This document shows positions 2,056 to 6,606 of a stretch of 6,606 nt of DNA, in pieces. The notes under the pieces are model-generated. The model did no database searches. It was not told the origin of the DNA and was given only the letters and a program-made list of their open reading frames with translations. A program made the position numbers and the translations under genes. Source of the DNA: an uncultured archaeon (GTDB taxonomy: Archaea; Iainarchaeota; Iainarchaeia; Iainarchaeales; Iainarchaeaceae). Where the stretch lies: NCBI GenBank assembly GCA_964577555.1, contig CAZNZM010000013.1, forward strand, positions 1-6,606. The letters are read 5' to 3'. Numbering within the stretch: the first letter of the stretch is position 1; each line of letters starts with the position of its first letter.

Positions 2056-2082
2056 TTTCAAAATCAAGAATAATCCGGTAAG

Positions 2083-2090
2083 TTTAAATT
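2083..2090. promoter_or_regulatory. Palindromic TTTAAATT element, candidate shared TATA box for the divergent alkA-like and RNase P RNA genes
   Basis: Centre near 2086.5. It lies about 25 nt upstream of the RNase P RNA 5' stem (2112-2114) and about 31 nt upstream of ATG 2055 on the other strand. The core TTTAAA reads the same on both strands. Confidence 0.4.
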
Positions 2091-2111
2091 TTTTTTAGAT
2101 ACACAATTATA

Positions 2112-2411
2112 GTGAGGAGCAGGGCGACAGGCTGCCGGTGCTTTGTGCGCTGAGGAAAGTCCGTCCACACTGAAAACTCCTGCATAAGCAGGGCATCGAG
2201 AGATGGCCAAGGGAAACAGAAACGACACCCGTTTTTGGGATGAAACGAGCCCTTGAGTGTGCAACTCCATTTTGGAGGCTTAGTCGAATGCCTGTGCGGC
2301 CAAAGGCTTAATTGCCAAAAAACCATTTTTTTAATGGGTTTTGCTTTTTTAAAGGCTTTTTGCCAAAAAAAGCGGCGCAAAACAGAAGACGGCTTATGCC
2401 CTGCACCTCTT
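2112..2411 (+). ncRNA. rnpB: RNase P RNA (type-A-like architecture, about 300 nt)
   Basis: The conserved GAGGAAAGTCCG is at 2152-2163 and ACAGAAGACGGCTTA at 2383-2396. P4 forms between 2157-2164 and 2389-2395 (A-T, A-T, G-C, bulged T2160, C-G, C-G, G-C, T-A), including the universally conserved bulged U. The terminal helices P1/P2 pair 2114-2125 (gaggagcagggc) with 2398-2409 (gccctgcacctc), with one mismatch. An oligo-T tract follows immediately. Confidence 0.9.
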
Positions 2412-2415
2412 TTTT
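2410..2415 (+). terminator. Oligo-T tract (T6) at the 3' end of the RNase P RNA
   Basis: tttttt directly follows the 3' strand of P1. This is consistent with oligo-T termination, as used by archaeal RNA polymerase. Confidence 0.45.
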
Positions 2416-2451
2416 AAGTTAATTAAAATTTTTTGGCGAAGTAAGTAAAGT

Positions 2452-2459
2452 TTTATATA
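2452..2459 (+). promoter_or_regulatory. Candidate TATA box (TTTATATA) for the giant subtilase gene
   Basis: Close match to the archaeal TATA consensus. Its centre is 25-26 nt upstream of ATG 2481. It is preceded by purine-rich gaagtaagtaaag. No SD-like sequence lies between it and the ATG, which suggests a leaderless mRNA. Confidence 0.45.
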
Positions 2460-2480: not shown

Positions 2481-2534
2481 ATGCATTGGCTTTTTTTGTT
2501 GGTGATTTTTTTTTATTCGTTGTTAGCCGGTTGT
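2481..2534 (+). other. Signal peptide with lipobox (MHWLFLLVIFFYSLLAG|C)
   Basis: A hydrophobic N-terminus is followed by L-A-G-C, which fits the lipobox pattern [LVI][ASTVI][GAS]C. The Cys codon is at 2532-2534. Confidence 0.7.
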
Positions 2535-5500
2535 GGCGAGCCTGTTCAAGAAATTTCTGTTTGTGGCGATGGAATTTGTTTTCCTAACGAAATTTCTTCT
2601 TGCAGTGCAGATTGCGTAAACTTGGCTGGGAGCGTTTCGCCTGCAAGTGTTTTGCCAAGCGAGACAGGAAGCGGCTCAAATCCTGTGACAAACAATTCAG
2701 ATCTTTCAAATGTCTATTTAGAATTTTTTCCTCCTAATCCTGCTCCGCAAGAAAATATGATTATAAAAGCTGAAGCGACTCTTAAAGAAGATGTTCCTCC
2801 AGGCACTTTTATTGATAAAATATCAATTGATTTTGGAAATGGAGAAGTTTTGGAATCGCTTTGTTCAAACAAAAAAAGATGTGTAGTGTCTTTTTCCAAG
2901 TCTTTTTCTTCTCAAGGGCGTTTTCCTGTAACAGCAAAAGTTTTTTCTTCAAATTCAGTTATTGGTAGCAATAATTATGTTGCGGAAGTATCTTATCCTG
3001 ATTATTCTTTTACTTGTGACGATTCTCAACTTCAAACTGCAGGCAGTGGCGCAACTGAAAATGCTTCTAGGTTGGAAATTTTGAAAGTTTCTGATTTTAG
3101 TACTCCTGACGCGGGCAAGGACAAAAATTTTTCTTTTTATTCTTTTGATGAAGGACCATTGCTTGACAGGGATTTTAGTGAGAGTATTAAAGGCGACAAG
3201 GTTTCTTTGATAGTTCAATTCAATTCCAAGTCACTAATTGAAAAAGCCAAAGAATTAAAGCTTAATCTTCCTGAATTGAGCAAAAATCCAGAACTTAATT
3301 ATTATTTGAATTATTTGAAAAAAGAACAAGAAACCTCTTTTGCGACTCTTTCAAAGTATTTTAAAGGACTTAAAAAGAAGCATTCTTTGCTTAACGTATT
3401 TAATGGGGTAGTAATAGAGGTTGATGTTGAAGATTTTAAAGAAGCTATTGTTCAGGTTGAAAAGCTCGGAATTGTAAAGAAAATTTATCCAGACGCTAAC
3501 GTTTATCCTTCATTATCAAACAGCGTGCCCAATATTAAAGCAAATCAAGTTTGGAGTTTGAAGGATTCTCGCGGTTTGCCTTTGGAAGGAGAAGGAACTG
3601 TTATTTCAATAATAGATTCTGGCATTGATTATAAACACAGTGATTTGGGAGGTTGTTTTGGGCCTGCATGCAAAGTAATTGGAGGATATGATATAGTCAA
3701 TAACGATTCCGATCCAATGGATGATCATGGACATGGCACTCATGTTGCAGGCATAGCCGCAGGAGATGGAACATTAAAAGGTGTTGCGCCAAAGTCAAAA
3801 CTCTTGGCTTATAAAATATTTGACAAATACGGGTCAGGAAAATGGTCAGATATTTTAAAAGCCATGGATTTGTCTGTTGATCCTAACCAGGATTTGGATT
3901 ATTCTGACAGCGCAGACGTAATAAATTTAAGCTTGGGTGGATATGGAAATTCTGATGACCCTATAAGCGTGGCTGTTGATAATATAGTTGATAAAGGCGT
4001 TGTAGTAGTAGCCGCGGCTGGAAATTATGGGCTATTAGGATATATGGGTGCTCCTTCTGCTTCAAGAAAAGCTATTTCAGTAGGTGCTTCGTCTGGCAAT
4101 GAAATTACTGATTTTAGCATGAATGGGCCTGTATTTTCCAATAATCTTTCCGAAATGTTTGTAAAACCTGATATTGTTGCACCAGGCTTGGAAATTTGTT
4201 CTGCTTTGAGTTCACAACTTTTTAAAAGCGGAAATTGCGTTGATTCAACTCATACAAAAATGAGTGGGACAAGCATGTCGACACCTCATATTTCTGGTTT
4301 GGTTGCTTTAATAAAACAAGCACACCCTGACTGGACTCCATCAGAAATCAAAGGGGCAATAGTCAGTTCGGGAATTGATCTTGGTTATAGCCACTTTGTT
4401 CAAGGCACCGGTTTGGTTGATTCCGTTGAAGCAATAAATGCTAAAGTTATTACAGAACCTGTTTCTTTGGGTTTTATTTCCGTTAATCCTTTTACTGAAC
4501 AAACAAAGAATTTTGTTGTAAAAAATTTGAGTGCCAATTCATTAGGCGTAAAAGTATTGTTGCCTTCCGTTGTTTATGAGTCTAAAATCGAAGAAACAGG
4601 ATTTGATACAGGTTACTCTTCGGAACATAGCCCTGTAAATCTTGGAAAGAGATTGCTTGAAAAAAGCTTTTCAGCTTCGTTCTCTATTTCGCAAAACTCT
4701 TTATGTCTTTCTCCAAAGTCTTTCCAAAATTTGGCTCTTACATTTAATTCAACCAATGCTCCTTTAGGCGGTTATTATACTAATGCAATAACCTTTGAAG
4801 TTTATTCGGATTGCAGTTTTAGCAACAAATTAAAAGAAACTAAAATGCCTATAGCGATTGGAAGGTTGAATAAAGCTTTAATTAATTTTACACAAAGAAA
4901 TGACAAAAAAGGAGAAACTATTTTTAGAGCTTTAGATTTTTTTAAAAAGGACGAGTTACCAATATACTTTAATTTTTTATTGAGTAAAAACGAAAATTCA
5001 AAATCATTTTACTTTTTGAAAGAGCCTCTTGAAGTTGTTTATACGCATGTTTGGGCTGAAAAATCCAATGAAAAAATAACTAACATAAATTTTTTATATG
5101 CTGTGAGGCAAATAAATTTTTCAGATTCTTCAAATGGATTATTAACAATAAATATTAATGAAAATGAAATTCCTTTGCTGGCTGACGACTCTGAAAGAAT
5201 CCTAAGGGAAACAAACTTGGAGTTATTCGGCAAATACTTTGAGTTAGATAGAACTTTAAATAATATTCGTTATGATATACCCATTGCTACAGGAAGAATT
5301 CTTGAAACAAATGCATGTCCTTCAATCAAAAAATTTAATCAATACTTTTCCATTGACGACCCTTCTTCAACCAAGTGGGAATTTTACACGGGTTTTTATG
5401 CAAAAGATAAGGGCAAGAGCTTTTACAATGCAAAAAACATCCTTATGGCAACCAATTATATAGACAATTTGAAAGGCAAAAACAGCATTAGTTTTGGATC

Positions 5501-6606
5501 AGTTGCAAGAAAAGAAATGATTTTTTTCCAACCAATAAAAAGCGAAAATAAAAATTTTTTATTTGACATGGGGATTGCACCGAAGATGGCTGAACATAAT
5601 CATCTGTTAGGTACTGGTTGGTTTATTGAAAGGGTCAATCCAAATGTAAAAAAAACATTATTGCATAATTCATACTCATTTCCAATAGTTTTAGATTATT
5701 CAATAGCTTATCTTTCTTTAACCCCTGAATTTGAATACATTTCCGAATTAGAACAACGGTTTGTGGGAAATCTTTCAAATTCAGATTCTATTAAATTTGA
5801 ATTCATGAAACCGCCTATTTCCGCATATTTCCTTATTAGAGAGAAAGACGATGGCCCAATAACAAACCTAGTAAATTCATTGAATATTATGTTAAAAGAT
5901 GAAGGAAAAAAGCCGTTGCAAATAAATAAACCTCTTTGGTATAAATTTTCAGAAAATGATTTGCTTTTTGGACATTACTCAAAAAACATCAAAATTTCCA
6001 TAAAAAGACCTGATGGCAAAACCATAATACTAACGCCAAAGGAATCGAAAATATCATGCCTGTTAATAATGGAAAATACAAATCAGTATTGCCTTGACGG
6101 CAAGTATGAATTTACTGCAGAATATTCTGGCTTGAAAGACATTGAACACTATGTTTTGAAGGGATTTGCAAATTATAATCGTGCTTCTGGCGGTTGGACT
6201 TTAGAACCTAATAACAAACCATCAGTTTCTTTGTCTGTTTCAAAAAATGAAAACATAGTTGAAGGAGATAATTTAACTTTTGAAGCTGTTGCTTCAGACT
6301 CAGACGGTATTGCATTTGTGCAATTTTATGATAATGGTGTTAAAATAGGAACTGACGAAAGTCCGCCTTATTCACTTCAAACTTCTTTAAACAAAGGCTC
6401 GCACGAAATAACTGCTTATGCTTTTGACACTTTTGGACTATTAGGTTCAAGCCCCAGTATTTTGCTTAATGTTAATGAAAATGTCGTGGTTACTAACATG
6501 CCGCCTGTTGTTTCTTTAACTTCGCCACTTGACAGAACAACCTACACAGCCCCAGCAAACATAACCATAACAGCAAACGCCAACGACCCAGACGGAACCA
6601 TAACAA
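2481..6606 (+). CDS. Giant lipobox-bearing multidomain S8 subtilisin-family serine protease (3' partial, at least 1375 aa, continues past the window)
   Basis: Translated by hand from ATG 2481 (in-frame TAA at 2475-2477 just upstream) to 6605 with no stop codon. The catalytic motifs are IIDSGID (Asp 3615-3617), HGHGTHVAG (His 3732-3734), AAAGNYG (Asn 4023-4025) and SGTSMSTPH (Ser 4272-4274). It is absent from the supplied track, probably because that track lists only ORFs closed by a stop within the window. Confidence 0.95.
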   Translation, partial: MHWLFLLVIFFYSLLAGCGEPVQEISVCGDGICFPNEISSCSADCVNLAGSVSPASVLPSETGSGSNPVTNNSDLSNVYLEFFPPNPAPQENMIIKAEATLKEDVPPGTFIDKISIDFGNGEVLESLCSNKKRCVVSFSKSFSSQGRFPVTAKVFSSNSVIGSNNYVAEVSYPDYSFTCDDSQLQTAGSGATENASRLEILKVSDFSTPDAGKDKNFSFYSFDEGPLLDRDFSESIKGDKVSLIVQFNSKSLIEKAKELKLNLPELSKNPELNYYLNYLKKEQETSFATLSKYFKGLKKKHSLLNVFNGVVIEVDVEDFKEAIVQVEKLGIVKKIYPDANVYPSLSNSVPNIKANQVWSLKDSRGLPLEGEGTVISIIDSGIDYKHSDLGGCFGPACKVIGGYDIVNNDSDPMDDHGHGTHVAGIAAGDGTLKGVAPKSKLLAYKIFDKYGSGKWSDILKAMDLSVDPNQDLDYSDSADVINLSLGGYGNSDDPISVAVDNIVDKGVVVVAAAGNYGLLGYMGAPSASRKAISVGASSGNEITDFSMNGPVFSNNLSEMFVKPDIVAPGLEICSALSSQLFKSGNCVDSTHTKMSGTSMSTPHISGLVALIKQAHPDWTPSEIKGAIVSSGIDLGYSHFVQGTGLVDSVEAINAKVITEPVSLGFISVNPFTEQTKNFVVKNLSANSLGVKVLLPSVVYESKIEETGFDTGYSSEHSPVNLGKRLLEKSFSASFSISQNSLCLSPKSFQNLALTFNSTNAPLGGYYTNAITFEVYSDCSFSNKLKETKMPIAIGRLNKALINFTQRNDKKGETIFRALDFFKKDELPIYFNFLLSKNENSKSFYFLKEPLEVVYTHVWAEKSNEKITNINFLYAVRQINFSDSSNGLLTININENEIPLLADDSERILRETNLELFGKYFELDRTLNNIRYDIPIATGRILETNACPSIKKFNQYFSIDDPSSTKWEFYTGFYAKDKGKSFYNAKNILMATNYIDNLKGKNSISFGSVARKEMIFFQPIKSENKNFLFDMGIAPKMAEHNHLLGTGWFIERVNPNVKKTLLHNSYSFPIVLDYSIAYLSLTPEFEYISELEQRFVGNLSNSDSIKFEFMKPPISAYFLIREKDDGPITNLVNSLNIMLKDEGKKPLQINKPLWYKFSENDLLFGHYSKNIKISIKRPDGKTIILTPKESKISCLLIMENTNQYCLDGKYEFTAEYSGLKDIEHYVLKGFANYNRASGGWTLEPNNKPSVSLSVSKNENIVEGDNLTFEAVASDSDGIAFVQFYDNGVKIGTDESPPYSLQTSLNKGSHEITAYAFDTFGLLGSSPSILLNVNENVVVTNMPPVVSLTSPLDRTTYTAPANITITANANDPDGTIT
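2532..2615 (+). other. Short Cys-rich module, C-x9-C-x4-C-x7-C-x3-C (CGEPVQEISVCGDGICFPNEISSCSADC)
   Basis: Five Cys in 28 residues directly after the signal peptide. It is followed by a low-complexity Ser/Pro/Gly linker (SVSPASVLPSETGSGSNPVTNNS). Confidence 0.6.
2709..2999 (+). other. PKD-like / Ig-like beta-sandwich domain
   Basis: IDFGNGEV...SFSKSFSSQGRFPVTAKVFSSNSVIGSNNYVAEV resembles the PKD signature (xDFGDG ... HxYxxxGxYxVxLxV). Assignment is by motif resemblance only. Confidence 0.5.
3195..3506 (+). other. Subtilase N-terminal propeptide (inhibitor I9-like)
   Basis: DKVSLIVQFNS ... LLNVFNGVVIEVDVEDFKEAIVQVEKLGIVKKIYPDANVY lies immediately upstream of the catalytic domain. This is the typical I9 pattern and position. 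Confidence 0.65.
3525..4440 (+). other. Peptidase S8 (subtilisin) catalytic domain
   Basis: Complete Asp-His-Ser triad plus the oxyanion Asn, in canonical order and motif context (see the CDS entry). It ends near GTGLVDSVEAINA. Confidence 0.95.
4449..4808 (+). other. Post-catalytic beta-sandwich-like segment (Fn3/CARDB-like position in subtilases)
   Basis: ITEPVSLGFISVNPFTEQTKNFVVKNLSANSLGVKV ... YYTNAITFEVYS shows an alternating hydrophobic pattern. Its placement is typical of accessory domains after S8 catalytic domains. Inference only. Confidence 0.4.
6219..6473 (+). other. Ig-like repeat 1 (bacterial-Ig-type, xSDSDGIxxVxFYxNGxxIG...PY...GxHxITAxAxD)
   Basis: PSVSLSVSKNENIVEGDNLTFEAVASDSDGIAFVQFYDNGVKIGTDESPPYSLQTSLNKGSHEITAYAFDTFGLLGSSPSILLNV matches the common Ig-like repeat pattern of secreted glycosidases and proteases. 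Confidence 0.7.
6501..6606 (+). other. Ig-like repeat 2 (partial, runs off the window)
   Basis: PPVVSLTSPLDRTTYTAPANITITANANDPDGTIT aligns with the start of repeat 1 (P-x-V-x-L-x-S ... N-[LI]-T-[FI]-x-A-x-A-x-D-x-D-G). Confidence 0.65.

Follow-up and report, generated by a model that had tools for sequence, protein, structure and literature searches.

A long open frame missing from an ORF list encodes a probable exported pre-pro-subtilase of a DPANN-type archaeon

What does the longest open frame of this DNA encode, and why is it missing from the list of open reading frames (ORFs) that accompanied the sequence? The stretch that we analysed, hereafter the window, is 6,606 nucleotides (nt) long, and the frame in question opens on its forward strand at ATG 2481 and continues to the last base. 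Our results identify it as a real conserved gene cut off by the window edge, and its product is likely a large exported pre-pro-subtilase (MEROPS S8, subtilisin type) of an uncultivated DPANN-type archaeon closest to Iainarchaeota/Diapherotrites. An earlier note on this DNA had described the layout of a very large multidomain exported subtilase; the core of that description is supported and its domains were recovered, some of them with the qualifications given below.

Re-translation of the window gave 1375 codons and zero stops between positions 2481 and 6605 on the plus strand, as the earlier note had claimed, and each of the other five frames holds 53-139 stops over the same interval. An in-frame TAA at 2475-2477 directly precedes ATG 2481, which is thus the first possible start; the gene (2481..6606, +) is complete at its 5' end and truncated at its 3' end. 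Under the local base composition (A+T 65%) the probability of 1375 stop-free codons is ~4e-47, congruent with the statement that an accidental frame of this length is essentially impossible, and the frame does cover 62% of the window, of which it is the largest gene. It is absent from the list because the ORF lister drops ORFs that run off an end, just as had been supposed. The small ORFs listed within the gene at 2714-2899, 2955-3218, 5039-5233 and 4341-4502 (all on the minus strand) and at 5272-5463 (plus strand) lie in other frames; four of them (all except 4341-4502) are those taken earlier for shadow frames.

A homologue search through 5.8 billion proteins returned 2170 matches. One protein, P0001, is colinear with the query over all 1375 amino acids (aa), with 46% identity and 100% coverage, and among the matches listed all the others cover 16-54% of the query, as would be expected if they matched just the catalytic domain and propeptide. 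We located further copies of the locus by searching for exact matches to the neighbouring HhH-GPD protein of 200 aa. The window DNA is 100% identical in four independent assemblies, three JGI metagenomes (3300043177, 15.5 kb; 3300037501, 23.8 kb; 3300043267, 1.9 kb) and one SRA assembly (Logan SRR12686701, 4.1 kb), and the annotation of each of the two long contigs includes the gene, as a partial product of 1399 aa. The idea that the frame is not a gene, being either a chance opening or an assembly artefact, has only its absence from the ORF list to speak for it. The ~4e-47 chance, the strong domain matches within the frame, the orthologue P0001 with its 46% identity across 1375 aa and the identical sequence in four independent assemblies all stand against it; on these grounds the chance ORF was rejected, and we give the whole idea a practically negligible probability.

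The catalytic part of the product is that of a subtilase. Peptidase_S8 (PF00082) matched aa 370-634 (3588..4382, +) with 187.3 bits against a cut-off of 21.8 (E=5e-55), and structurally the domain reaches ~aa 655; the complete S8 domain claimed earlier is therefore present, with its triad intact. Neither of the two outcomes that the earlier note had named as refuting, an in-frame stop or the lack of a significant S8 match here, was observed. Alignment and sequence place the catalytic residues in canonical motifs on the plus strand: D379 in IIDSGID (3615-3617), H418 in HGHGTHVAG (3732-3734), the oxyanion residue N515 in AAGNYG (4023-4025) and S598 in SGTSMSTPH (4272-4274). All four are invariant in a 40-sequence alignment. 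In the AlphaFold2 (AF2) model the predicted local distance difference test (pLDDT) score of the S8 region is mostly >90, and Foldseek gave this predicted model target-normalised TM-scores of 0.83-0.90 against the subtilisins BPN' and Carlsberg and thermitase. The nearest structures are ProN-Tk-SP (3afg), Vpr (8jmw) and pro-subtilisin E (3whi), and the top solved relative is Tk-SP 3afg, with E=2.8e-51 by sequence and 2.4e-30 by Foldseek. By profile, by triad and by predicted fold, the protein belongs to peptidase family S8.

More specific memberships were rejected. The top NCBIfam match, mycosin (TIGR03921), reached 137.1 bits against an equivalog cut-off of 278.75 and reflects shared S8 similarity only; CspBA, the PatA/G protease and the LPXTG peptidases all fell far under their NCBIfam cut-offs. 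Pseudoprotease subtilases such as CspC exist, and CspC-type NCBIfam models matched the protein weakly, far under their cut-offs, so one could picture a non-catalytic pseudoprotease or a pure adhesin that retains the subtilase fold. Against this, the DSGID, HGTHVAG, GNYG and GTSMSTPH motifs with the triad and N515 are intact and invariant over the 40 homologues; we rejected a pseudoprotease, which seems very improbable.

Among the matches listed, the closest relatives of the S8 domain share 44-53% identity with it and belong to DPANN archaea and to bacteria of the candidate phyla radiation (CPR)/Patescibacteria (Saccharibacteria, Daviesbacteria, Nealsonbacteria). The two groups are unrelated, and both consist of ultra-small cells; gene exchange could explain the spread, and so could a common habitat and sampling.

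Upstream of the catalytic domain lies a probable propeptide of the I9 type (aa 238-345; 3192..3515, +) with a long inserted helix. The earlier note had proposed an I9 propeptide to be checked against PF05922, and that direct check failed: the profile gave no match at E<=10, either with the whole protein or with aa 181-370 and 228-350, and the corresponding segment of P0001 does not match it either. The claim itself stood by another route. All of the 14 homologue segments that align to aa 232-348 match PF05922 (best E=5.9e-11), and an hhalign comparison of the window protein plus P0001 with those 14 segments gave 97.6% and E=3.2e-12 over 110 columns. The AF2 model of aa 240-337 has the order beta-alpha-alpha-beta-beta-alpha-beta, and the Foldseek alignments to ProN-Tk-SP 3afg and pro-subtilisin E 3whi are ~120 columns longer than those to mature subtilisins, with a high root-mean-square deviation. 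Homologues, profile comparison and predicted fold together point to an I9-type propeptide that would act as intramolecular chaperone and inhibitor. The sequence after aa 345, SNSVPNIKANQVW, resembles the N-terminus of mature subtilisin, AQSVPYGVSQIKA, and L345, S348, I352, A354 and W358 vary little or not at all within the family.

The N-terminus is of the exported type. Residues 1-18 (2481..2534, +) read MHWLFLLVIFFYSLLAGC, a signal peptide with lipobox (MHWLFLLVIFFYSLLAG followed by C18) in which the hydrophobic core LFLLVIFFYSL is succeeded by L15-A16-G17-C18. Residues 1-22 are hydrophobic, and AF2 models a helix at aa 2-15. The lipobox announced earlier was confirmed, as LLAGC; its L-A-G-C satisfies the lipobox pattern [LVI][ASTVI][GAS]C directly after the hydrophobic core, and a lipobox is kept in the relatives as FLAGC (P0001), LLSGC (P0121) and IISGC (P0149). 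Lipoproteins are predicted to be prevalent in DPANN archaea, and the AliA family (arCOG02177) is reported in them 'with some gaps' (PMC12462473). The earlier description of the protein as lipobox-anchored holds only in part: the lipobox is there, and since the lipobox, the Cys motif and the PKD-like domain described next all lie upstream of the propeptide, a lipid would tether at most the zymogen and not the processed enzyme.

The Cys-rich module of the earlier note corresponds to a 4-Cys motif, CGDGIC-x7-C-x3-C, at aa 28-45 (2562..2615, +), which is conserved in P0001, P0121 and P0149 and had zero Pfam or NCBIfam family matches. Motifs of the form CG[DN][GN]xC-x(6-20)-C-x2/3-C stand just past the signal peptide in several DPANN S8 proteins (P0121, P0149, P0068, P0044), and in the orthologue P0001 the Cys motif occurs again near the C-terminus, as CNDGIQNQGELGVDCGGPCPAC. 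Closely spaced cysteines are found along the window protein at 28/33/41/45, 128/134, 392/397, 573/586, 742/778 and 1193/1204, and such pairs would fit disulfides of an extracytoplasmic protein.

The Cys motif is followed by a putative PKD-like beta-sandwich at aa 73-172 (2697..2996, +). AF2 places seven strands at aa 76-170 with block-mean pLDDT values of 71-91, and the sequence reads IDFGNG...SSQGRFPVTAKV (with QGRFPVTAKV), to be compared with the PKD signature (W)DFGDG ... Y..xGxYxV. The proposed check against PF00801 failed: neither PF00801 nor PF18911 matched aa 70-175 of the window protein, even at E<=10, and a profile search of the PDB gave a non-significant match only. The aligned segment of P0149 matches PKD_4 with E=7.5e-6 and 26.4 bits, just below the cut-off of 27, and P0001 matches it with E=0.04. 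The beta-sandwich model and the homology to the P0149 segment thus make 'PKD-like' a reasonable name, with membership in the family unestablished. A linker of low model confidence (aa 173-229; 2997..3167, +; pLDDT <50), probably disordered, leads to the propeptide.

The ~590 aa between the S8 domain and the C-terminal repeats (aa 656-1245) form a family-specific module, and this is the only unusual part of the protein, very rare and poorly understood. An exhaustive phmmer search of 1.84 billion representatives found only four relatives of the module, P0001, P0121, P0122 and P0027; P0122 is a fragment of the complete, 1267-aa P0149. In all, the module is known from about six proteins, and all the named ones belong to Ca. 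Diapherotrites. The five module sequences (window, P0001, P0121, P0027 and P0122/P0149) are colinear over ~560 aa with conserved Cys. Pfam scans of all five over the module gave no match, and neither did a profile of the module run against PDB sequences. A 5-sequence module profile run against the 5.8 billion proteins gave no match, not even P0001; the poly-G run of P0027 may have filled the candidates, and the result is uninformative.

AF2 with the 5-sequence alignment modelled the module with a mean pLDDT of 50.6, a low value due to so few sequences; confidence is high for the first 150 residues and moderate for the 110 that follow. These make up part 1 (aa 656-915; 4446..5225, +), predicted as two immunoglobulin (Ig)-like beta-sandwiches of the ASH/PapD/MSP type. 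Foldseek matched them in the PDB to CEP192 ASH domains and to PapD/FimC-type chaperones with E ~1e-5, and part 1 had weak Pfam matches to SusE and Ig_CFAP65_4th. Part 2 (aa 916-1245; 5226..6215, +) is predicted to be mostly beta, with pLDDT <50, and is colinear in the five sequences, with conserved Cys; it had neither a Pfam match nor a profile match among PDB sequences. The unassigned region of ~468 aa in the earlier note is therefore to be redrawn: the stretch is ~590 aa long, its first ~260 aa model as two Ig-like domains, and ~330 aa stay unassigned.

The tandem Ig-like repeats reported at the end of the frame are Big_7 domains. With PF17957 (cut-off 24.1) the whole protein scored 66.6 bits and its C-terminal piece 78.3 bits, and two stretches were matched. 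Repeat 1 spans aa 1247-1312 (6219..6416, +; E=7e-22 on the C-terminal piece), and repeat 2 starts at ~aa 1342, aligns locally with repeat 1 and is cut by the window end (6504..6605, +). No tandem repeats were detected at the DNA level within the Big_7 region of the window. The extension of the contig suggested earlier succeeded in part: on the 15.5-kb contig (L082) repeat 2 runs 24 codons further, and there the contig ends before the gene does. This contig and the 23.8-kb one (L086), two independent JGI assemblies, stop at the identical base, 72 nt past the window and inside repeat 2 (L082 1-73, L086 1-73). Near-identical downstream repeats probably break the assemblies, which is why the C-terminus was not recovered. 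Scans of metagenome contigs with an exact 48-mer and with the module pattern gave no match.

The orthologues show how such a protein may end. The contig of P0001 has a 100-N scaffold gap inside the repeats, and after the gap the frame resumes in identical repeats and continues for another 561 aa, in which additional Big_7 repeats, another Cys motif and low-complexity linkers rich in G/S and P/E lead up to a C-terminal transmembrane (TM) helix, RK and a stop. P0149, which is complete, stops right after the module and has neither Big_7 nor a C-terminal TM helix. Because the C-terminal ends of family members differ, the anchoring of the mature enzyme cannot be read from them; a C-terminal anchor is plausible but unproven for the window protein, since it shares the Big_7 extension of P0001. 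The next gene downstream of P0149 (L087 7861-11804, JAWAGW010000007.1) encodes a protein of >2333 aa with faint CarboxypepD_reg and SpaA matches; the two may form a pair of protease and giant surface protein.

The surroundings of the gene point to its host. A complete archaeal RNase P RNA lies at 2115-2408 on the plus strand (Rfam RF00373, 109.6 bits, E=1e-30), its 3' end 72 nt upstream of the subtilase gene. The host is thus an archaeon. The ORFs listed at 2084-2380 (-), 2064-2270 (-) and 2253-2417 (+) overlap this RNA and are therefore probably not genuine. The G+C content of the window is about 30-39%. One scan of genome contigs for relatives kept 80 loci from at least 600 stretches, among which the contig of the window did not figure; the nearest relatives among the matches listed are metagenome-assembled genomes (MAGs) of Iainarchaeum/Diapherotrites, Woesearchaeota, Nanoarchaeota, Pacearchaeota and Aenigmatarchaeota, together with some CPR bacteria. 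Our best guess from these sequence comparisons is a DPANN archaeon close to Iainarchaeota/Diapherotrites, and the earlier hint of a small-genome episymbiont is consistent with a lineage of this type.

Reading the sequence upstream of the gene, we found a TATA-like box, TTTATATA, at 2452..2459 (+), ~25 nt before the ATG; the orthologue P0001 has TTTAAATA at equal distance from its start (L001 3199-3206, ATG 3230). It is possible that this box is the archaeal promoter of a leaderless mRNA, but such boxes are common in AT-rich DNA. On the minus strand at 1456-2055 lies the gene for the HhH-GPD family DNA glycosylase (200 aa from ATG; Pfam E=3e-14), whose exact protein is found in four assemblies. 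The ORF at 668-1165 (+, 165 aa), which public assemblies annotate as a gene of 165 aa (Logan) or 154 aa (JGI), has an N-terminal hydrophobic segment and no Pfam match; its product is possibly a small secreted or membrane protein. A KaiC-like ORF of 161 aa occupies 1-487 on the minus strand (Pfam KaiC/ATPase, E=4e-23). Its TAA at 2-4 exists in the window only, where bases 1-3 are TTT as against TGA on L082; on that otherwise identical contig the gene extends to 243 aa, and an exact-protein look-up of the 161-aa form gave no record. The window truncates this gene as well, and its apparent stop is an artefact of the window edge or of a contig end.

How would such a protein work? In subtilases an I9 domain assists folding, and the propeptide is then normally cleaved off and degraded. 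For the window protein we infer lipidation, autoprocessing, the substrate and the fate of the mature enzyme; its export, folding and autocleavage are modelled on this established biology of subtilases. The N-terminal signal peptide would direct Sec export across the membrane, and Cys18 would probably be lipid-modified, so that the zymogen is tethered. The I9-type propeptide would fold the catalytic domain and be autocleaved, probably near aa 345/346. The active Asp379-His418-Ser598 enzyme could then degrade extracellular proteins at or near the cell surface, and would carry the two Ig-like domains, the ~330-aa family-specific region and the Big_7 stalk. Most likely it would serve a cell of reduced metabolism and biosynthesis in scavenging peptides and amino acids, and it might possibly act on the surface of a host cell.

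Several points weigh against this reading: the n-region of the signal peptide (MHW...) has no Lys or Arg; neither the I9 nor the PKD call has a direct Pfam match; ~330 aa (916-1245) lack a fold assignment; the C-terminus is missing, with the long contigs ending 72 nt past the window; the 561-aa C-terminal fragment of the orthologue used as query gave only low-complexity and Big_7 matches and no counterpart; and the family varies at its C-terminal end, with a TM helix in P0001 versus none in P0149.

Two further explanations accept the protease and differ on where it acts. The catalytic part may be released after autoprocessing as a soluble secreted protease, with the lipobox fragment serving as a transient tether of the zymogen. 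The position of the lipobox N-terminal to the I9 propeptide agrees with such a release, as does the cleavage and degradation of the propeptide in known subtilisin maturation, and the complete P0149 stops after the module and has no C-terminal TM helix. The closest orthologue, P0001, nevertheless continues to a C-terminal TM helix, and the Big_7 extension common to it and the window protein, absent in P0149, suggests a stalk-and-anchor design; free release is accordingly a tentative alternative that we hold to be rather improbable. The protein could instead be a host-interaction factor, an adhesin-protease with which an episymbiotic DPANN cell attaches to the envelope of its host or digests it locally, the module and the Big_7 stalk giving recognition and reach. 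The DPANN-type lineage speaks for this, as do the large multi-Ig architecture, the restriction of the module to about six proteins whose named members are all Ca. Diapherotrites, the surface-type protein of >2333 aa that adjoins the P0149 gene in L087, and the precedent of the SPEARE proteins of Nanohaloarchaeota, for which a part in host contact has been proposed (PMC6642349).

However, Ig-like tails on S8 proteases are a widespread feature among free-living bacteria and archaea, Pfam and NCBIfam scans of the 1375 aa found no laminin-G, toxin or restriction-enzyme domains, the orthologue lacks the cytoplasmic part of SPEARE proteins, ending three residues after its TM helix, and the neighbours of the gene are of the housekeeping kind (RNase P RNA, HhH-GPD glycosylase, KaiC-like ATPase). 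A role in host interaction, still as speculative as in the earlier note, is a fair rival but appears unlikely. Bolder still is the proposal that the module, above all its unmodelled 330 aa, is a new Iainarchaeota/Diapherotrites-restricted recognition module that steers the protease to a specific target, e.g. the host envelope; we think this quite doubtful, and, if true, it would make the small family a DPANN host-interaction device analogous to the SPEARE proteins.

With the exported pre-pro-subtilase as the preferred reading, this is an ordinary kind of protein, whose relatives NCBI already names 'S8 family serine peptidase': one more large exported subtilase beside the many seen in DPANN archaea and CPR bacteria, and in that respect not surprising. 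In an archaeon of reduced genome it is a useful candidate for surface biology or extracellular proteolysis, and two of its traits are noteworthy: the rare 590-aa module, and the layout of anchors, in which the lipobox precedes the propeptide and the orthologue has a TM helix at its far C-terminal end. The case also bears on annotation. The ORF track silently omits the largest gene of the window, since the gene runs off the edge, and scans relying on such a track overlook partial genes at the ends of contigs, the typical place of repeat-rich surface proteins, because repeats break assemblies.

Finally, we compared the protein with known systems. The lactocepin PrtP and the streptococcal ScpA are very large pre-pro S8 enzymes with long beta-rich post-catalytic domains and a C-terminal cell anchor. 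Bacterial cell-envelope proteinases of this type resemble the window protein in function; the latter, however, is archaeal, shows no Fn3_5 or LPXTG in the window and scored 50 bits with the NCBIfam models of LPXTG-anchored S8 peptidases, against a cut-off of 1400. The SPEARE proteins are giant surface proteins of DPANN archaea, 3,000-8,500 aa long. They combine an N-terminal serine-protease region with adhesion domains including laminin-G, and close to their C-terminus a TM helix is followed by a cytoplasmic part of the type III restriction-enzyme kind (PMC6642349). The defining laminin-G and type III restriction-enzyme domains were not detected in the 1375 aa of the window protein, whose own C-terminus is missing, and the P0001 frame, unlike that of a SPEARE protein, stops three residues after the TM helix, which leaves no such cytoplasmic part.

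Among solved structures the nearest counterpart is Tk-SP of Thermococcus kodakarensis (PDB 3afg, 9ues), likewise an archaeal pro-enzyme and of a type that the window protein resembles in function, with 34% identity by Foldseek over the catalytic domain and propeptide. Its deposited chain has 539 aa and is without lipobox, PKD-like domain, module and Big_7. Tk-SP carries a single C-terminal beta-jelly-roll domain. Within the family, P0149 (MEM4390860.1), a complete 1267-aa S8 peptidase from a Ca. Diapherotrites MAG, shares the lipobox, Cys motif, PKD-like domain, I9, S8 and module, with 34% identity over 854 aligned columns; it differs in an extra CarboxypepD_reg-like domain after the lipobox and in its lack of Big_7 and TM helix. 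The closest protein is P0001, annotated as 'S8 family serine peptidase, partial' in the Ca. Diapherotrites/Iainarchaeum MAG GCA_038895675.1 (contig JAWANB010000030.1). It belongs to another genome and has no gene neighbourhood in common with the window, and its C-terminal continuation is known past the gap, whereas the matching part of the window gene is unassembled; along the shared length, however, it has the same lipobox, 4-Cys motif, PKD-like domain, I9, S8, 590-aa module and Big_7.

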